NCBI RefSeq assembly: GCF_003334815.1
Contig: NZ_QOWO01000110.1
Direction: 5' to 3' (one strand)
Length of the DNA: 1,010 bases
Source: Escherichia coli
GTDB lineage: Bacteria; Pseudomonadota; Gammaproteobacteria; Enterobacterales; Enterobacteriaceae
Below the pieces are notes generated by a model. It was given only the letters and a program-made list of their open reading frames with translations. It searched no databases and was not told the origin of the DNA. Both the position numbers and the translations under genes were made by a program. Within the stretch, counting starts at the first letter, position 1; every line of letters starts with the position of its first letter. Shown in pieces: positions 992 through 1,010 of this stretch.

Positions 992-1010
992 CTATTGCTG
1001 GGTAAGATCA
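971..1010 (-). repeat. Left terminal inverted repeat (IRL) of IS3; the inner boundary is approximate.
   Basis: The window ends ...GATCA, i.e. the minus strand begins 5'-TG, the conserved terminal dinucleotide of IS3-family ends. IS3-family inverted repeats are roughly 40 bp (established knowledge). The partner repeat is outside the window, so the extent cannot be confirmed by self-alignment. Confidence 0.6.

Follow-up and report, generated by a model that had tools for sequence, protein, structure and literature searches.

An Escherichia coli IS3 segment with both edges on repeat branch points, probably a collapsed-repeat contig

The window analyzed here, a stretch of 1,010 nucleotides of Escherichia coli DNA, is the reverse complement of nt 1–1010 of the canonical E. 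coli IS3 (1258 bp). All features described in the following are read on its minus strand. The IS3 left terminal inverted repeat (IRL, IS3 nt 1–39) occupies positions 972–1010, starts with 5′-TG, and has base 1010 as its outermost base. The final ten positions, 1001–1010 (ggtaagatca), give TGATCTTACC when reverse-complemented, which is how this inverted repeat begins; the minus strand at the end of the window reads TGATCTTACCCAGCAATAGTGGACACGCGGCTAAGTGAG and then enters an ORF.

Two reading frames cover most of the window. The first, orfA (646–945, minus strand), starts with ATG at 945, ends with the stop codon TGA at 648–646, and, according to the ORF list and its translation, comprises 99 amino acids that represent the HTH DNA-binding part of the transposase. 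Its product matches the Pfam family HTH_Tnp_1 (PF01527, E = 7e-10) as well as positions 1–87, meaning the N-terminal part, of the NCBIfam transpos_IS3 profile, and in K-12, RefSeq begins the CDS at the same position. The second frame, orfB (2–679, minus strand), lies in the −1 frame and is cut by the start of the window, which covers about three-quarters of it. Herein, 226 of approximately 299 codons after the slip site are present, and an ATG belonging to orfB itself is found at 649–647. The OrfB product matches NCBIfam transpos_IS3 (NF033516) at profile positions 83–302 of 369 with E = 2.6e-71, Pfam HTH_21 at window 493–344 with E = 4e-12, and, as the rve/DDE core, Pfam rve (PF00665) at window 274–8 with E = 6.7e-26 (model positions 2–92 of 102). 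Comparison with the full-length translation places both catalytic D residues of the DDE core inside the window and the catalytic E outside. The window thereby contains the HTH of OrfA together with the rve DDE core of OrfB, the rve domain being cut by the window edge.

The two frames are linked by an A-AAA-G slippery motif at 679–683 on the minus strand (IS3 nt 328–332), which was assigned from sequence and phase as the site of the programmed −1 frameshift from orfA into orfB. The string AAAAG is unique in IS3; it falls where orfA and orfB overlap, and its phase is that required for slippage by −1. Judged by this arrangement of overlapping frames in −1 phase, an OrfAB fusion protein is predicted, and the joined CDS of six reference copies of IS3 (L001–L006) is annotated in RefSeq as "programmed frameshift." An Rfam scan of the window at E ≤ 1 gave no match, neither to a curated frameshift element nor to any other RNA family. 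Over the 131 nt that follow the slip site, the minimum free energy fold was no more stable than those of shuffled sequences (z = −0.74), pseudoknots being beyond the method.

The reverse-complemented window was compared with genome collections by megablast. It matched 4,627 of 5,426 complete E. coli genomes, with a best place at least 99% identical to the window in 4,078 E. coli records and a median of three IS3 places per genome (maximum 16). All 25 matches listed, among them K-12 MG1655, are 100% identical over 1010/1010 nt and carry the annotation "IS3-like element IS3 family transposase." In the plasmid collection, 2,623 records were matched, 789 of them at 99% identity or more, and these belong mostly to Escherichia, Klebsiella, and Shigella. 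A phage origin was rejected, the 50,697 phage records having given one partial match at 89%. The window is an ordinary, already known element without biological novelty. IS3 has been characterized for decades; it is the type element of the IS3 family, is present in K-12 as the copies IS3A–E with the genes insE/insF, and also occurs on the F plasmid. The window is nucleotide-identical to it over 1010 bases and has the same IRL, orfA, A-AAA-G site, and orfB, whereas the last 248 nt (with the catalytic E, the 3′ end of orfB, and the right terminal inverted repeat, IRR) and both flanks lie outside. A complete IS3 would measure about 1258 bp and include both termini, whereas the window holds nt 1–1010 only; this partial length is a limit of the window and no evidence of truncation.

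IS3 moves by a copy-out/paste-in mechanism that relies on binding of the inverted repeats by the OrfAB fusion transposase; its target duplication is 3 bp, sometimes 4 bp. Within the IS3 family, cleavage by OrfAB at the terminal CA-3′ leads to a figure-of-eight and later to a circle, whose abutted ends then insert into the target and leave a short duplication of it (PMC3219604; PMC12095673). The relatives IS911, IS2, and IS150 use the same copy-out/paste-in pathway with a figure-of-eight and a circle bearing a junction promoter (PMC3219604; PMC12095673). They share with IS3 the TG...CA ends, the orfA/orfB organization with a −1 frameshift, and the rve DDE transposase, but are different elements at the sequence level. 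By analogy with the family, the element in the window would transpose in the same copy-out/paste-in manner via a figure-of-eight and a circle.

The position of the left terminus was determined from the six reference copies, which are independent (four chromosomal sites and two plasmids) and were taken with 1.5 kb of flank. Their common sequence begins exactly at the base matching window position 1010 and spans 1258 bp, and on either side of it the flanks already disagree at the first or second base. IRL and IRR, compared in full-length copies that contain the window sequence unchanged, agree at 28 of 39 positions, and each starts with 5′-TGATC. Imperfect terminal inverted repeats with a 5′-TG start and a CA-3′ end are found accordingly, the IRR itself lying outside the window. 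An earlier note on this DNA had identified the sequence as IS3 and base 1010 as its left terminus, and the exact divergence of the six flanks at this base confirms both. It had also stated that neither a flank nor a target duplication can be seen, which is correct for a window made up of IS3 nt 1–1010 only. Since a randomly placed window edge would fall on the terminal base with a probability of about 1/1258, the coincidence is better ascribed to a technical cause than to chance. Convention, too, may set a record boundary here, as in the F plasmid reference NC_002483.1 (H29), which opens at its own base 1 with the same IS3 left terminus. In this record, the flank of the terminus sits at the far end of the circular sequence.

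Outward-reading promoter signals at the left end, which the earlier note had proposed as one possible effect of the insertion, are not borne out. A promoter/terminator scan of the window yielded no outward-reading site at this end, and hexamers compared by hand over the final 60 nt of the window included no acceptable −35/−10 pair reading outward, so that a complete outward sigma-70-like site is missing there. In the IRR-NNN-IRL junction of IS3, a simple consensus scan found no sigma-70-like pair with at least four of six matches per hexamer. The left 150 bp of IS3 were chosen in a reporter study for showing no detectable promoter activity (PMC12095673). A lone sigma-70-like site is located within orfB at window 38–11 (minus strand), in the sense direction, and consists of TTATCA, a 16-nt spacer, and CATAAT (9/12 matches). 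With one site found versus 0.3 expected in shuffled sequences, it is probably a product of chance.

Which locus the element interrupts cannot be read from the window, since the sequence singles out no copy or locus: 40 distinct 20-nt left flanks were counted among 48 IS3 copies from E. coli genomes and IMG/VR contigs. Target duplications were surveyed in 27 distinct full-length IS3 insertions with both flanks. A 3-bp duplication is present in 11 of them, compared with about 0.4 expected by chance, which upholds the earlier description of 3 bp as the typical duplication of IS3. One further copy has a duplication of 4 bp, and the remaining 15 have none. The test suggested in the earlier note, by which flanks without a duplication would point to an artefact, is weak, because more than half of the sampled genuine copies lack one; for IS3, an absent duplication is no sign of an artefact. 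Two pairs of full-length copies (L027/L040 and L003/L159) have a common right flank, different left flanks, and no target duplication, as would be expected if IS3 copies had undergone homologous recombination with one another or if deletions had occurred next to them. On plasmid pCP53-92k (L005, 1471–1500), an IS3 copy lies 4 bp from an IS3-family inverted repeat-like sequence in opposite orientation (cgtgtccattattgctggataagatg). The latter belongs to an adjoining IS3-family remnant, and the IS3 insertion has the 4-bp duplication GGGT. This site may be an example of insertion beside inverted repeat-like targets.

The behavior of IS3 in draft assemblies was surveyed with a 40-mer of the IRL, which occurs at least 173 times in IMG/VR, GTDB genome contigs, and metagenome contigs. 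Among the 173 occurrences listed, 97 are contigs that end 41–140 nt inside IS3, with peaks at 53–55, 76–78, and 127 nt, and read-through of the full element is seen in only 25. Two MEGAHIT k141 contigs stop 139 and 140 nt inside IS3. Contig ends at 41–140 nt inside the element are the k−1 overlap signature of a break at a repeat. Single-N scaffold joins were observed at two further loci, one of them jumping from IS3 nt 228 to approximately nt 1058 (L020) and the other having its N one base beyond the right terminus (L012); draft assemblies break at IS3 in both. A metagenome contig (L124, 7896–7936) departs from IS3 at nt 605; what follows, CTGTCTCTTATACACATCTGACGCTGCCGACGA, is a Nextera adapter and thus contamination at a contig end. 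Five contigs ending in the IS3 left terminus (L053, L054, L058, L060, and L061) are found in MAGs labeled Candidatus Nanosynbacter, Flavobacterium psychrophilum, Lachnospiraceae, and Bacteroidales, and are most likely mis-binned Enterobacteriaceae contig ends. Two contigs (L084 and L178) start exactly at the terminus, and both carry a relative that has only the first 66 nt in common with IS3. Over these 66 nt, the relative, which is present in L084 1–200, L178, and at least 16 other metagenome loci, is identical to IS3 or has a single SNP at nt 61; after nt 66, it shows clearly lower identity and small indels, and AAG replaces ATG at the orfA start. Its appearance is that of a mosaic or decayed relative whose end is identical to that of IS3.

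The opposite edge of the window also coincides with a distinct feature of IS3. Internally, IS3 contains a 10-bp direct repeat, CTGCGTGGAA, whose first copy fills window positions 1–10 (minus strand; IS3 nt 1001–1010) and whose second copy lies outside the window at IS3 nt 1045–1054. This first copy is the endpoint of a 44-bp deletion. In the resulting 1214-bp allele of IS3 (L049 and L050, 1651–1760), the 44 bp between the repeats are lost, so that nt 1055 directly follows nt 1010. When complete E. coli genomes were searched with a query across this junction, at an E-value cutoff out of reach for intact IS3, 533 of 5,426 (approximately 10%) proved to carry the deletion allele, which occurs on chromosomes as well as plasmids. 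OrfB is thrown out of frame ahead of the catalytic E, and RefSeq annotates the allele as a frameshifted IS3 family transposase pseudogene. Strain 120899 has both types, an intact canonical IS3 on the chromosome (L006) and the deletion allele on plasmid p120899_146 (L182). The SNPs of the deletion alleles differ, being located at nt 200, 904, and 1214 in L049 and at nt 200, 511, 741, 1109, 1132, and 1214 in L182, and the allele may have more than one lineage or origin. Over IS3 nt 1–1010, the deletion alleles share the window sequence except for two or three SNPs (nt 200 and 904, or nt 200, 511, and 741), at all of which the window has the canonical base. The window therefore represents the intact-type allele or a consensus dominated by the intact type. 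No account of the 44-bp deletion allele turned up in the literature that could be searched, although it may still have been described elsewhere.

IS3 nt 1010, that is, window base 1, is a recurrent assembly break. In two IMG/VR contigs (L014 and L030), IS3 nt 1–1010 are followed by a single scaffold N and then by unrelated DNA, and in a third contig (L045), the DNA stops at IS3 nt 1010. The recurrence of this break is explained by the 10-bp repeat and the natural 44-bp deletion allele: in a genome with intact and deleted IS3 copies, the sequence branches immediately after nt 1010. Both window edges are hence branch points among IS3 copies, base 1010 being where the flanks diverge and base 1 being the last base common with the deletion allele.

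These observations favor, with reasonable though not high confidence, a window that is a collapsed-repeat contig standing for several IS3 copies at once. The window would then be an unbranched segment in the graph of a short-read assembly, with several canonical IS3 copies and, in addition, a deletion allele in the source genome, and with no flank beyond base 1010 in the parent record. A de Bruijn simulation with four intact copies and their flanks plus the deletion allele produced an unbranched IS3 1–1010 segment that is the reverse complement of the window, at both k = 55 and k = 127. When the SNPs of real deletion alleles were introduced (nt 200 and 904 of L049; nt 200, 511, and 741 of L182), the segment split further. 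A collapsed contig would accordingly need an assembler that pops SNP bubbles but keeps the 44-bp indel, which is the usual behavior of assemblers. The terminus is not always a break, however, as the left flank is still joined to IS3 in the three contigs that break at nt 1010, which argues against a collapse. No contig with the exact extent of the window was found among the nine GTDB genome-contig matches, nor among the 120 metagenome-contig matches listed.

The window could instead be a slice of a longer finished record, with a real single IS3 copy continuing to nt 1258, a genuine flank beyond base 1010, and edges set by windowing, an annotation boundary, or the origin of the record. Thousands of complete records hold the exact window sequence in context, and the F plasmid record illustrates that complete records do place boundaries at the IS3 terminus; its orientation is, however, opposite to that of the window. 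In a slice, moreover, both edges would have fallen by chance on nucleotide-exact branch points, at about 1/1258 each, and a cut driven by annotation would not end at IS3 nt 1010, inside orfB. A slice is therefore a possible but rather doubtful origin.

Far less probable still is a genuine truncated IS3 remnant (nt 1–1010), created by a rearrangement or by another element inserted after the CTGCGTGGAA repeat. Truncated or interrupted IS3 copies are common, the survey having given divergence points at nt 47, 72, 228, 534, 605, 752, 946, 979, and 1212, of which nt 228 and 605 are artefacts (a scaffold N and the Nextera adapter, respectively), and one further copy (H98) is cut at about IS3 nt 1135. 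The only cases ending at nt 1010 are, by contrast, scaffold joins with N or contig ends, without junctions to other DNA, and no natural junction of nt 1010 with foreign DNA was seen except the 44-bp deletion. A remnant would also account for only one of the two window edges.

With the collapsed-repeat contig as the preferred reading, the view of the earlier note that the flank of one particular copy lies just outside the window is probably wrong, given the recurrent break at nt 1010, the deletion allele, and the graph simulation. The window probably fits the scenario that the same note had named as its own refutation, an assembly artefact.

Concerning the deletion allele itself, its repeated presence could result from recurrent slippage between the 10-bp repeats, or from the spread of one allele mobilized in trans by intact copies. 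The truncated OrfAB would keep the DNA-binding and dimerization parts without the catalytic E. It is conceivable, if very improbable, that the allele is not mere decay but a derivative that is maintained, its truncated OrfAB inhibiting the transposition of IS3 in a trans-dominant fashion.

Window edges that coincide with repeat branch points call for caution, as they indicate that the sequence is probably a collapsed-repeat contig. If it is one, that record offers no way of telling which gene this copy disrupts. The only mildly new item to emerge from this otherwise familiar element is the widespread 44-bp deletion allele, together with its effect on assemblies.
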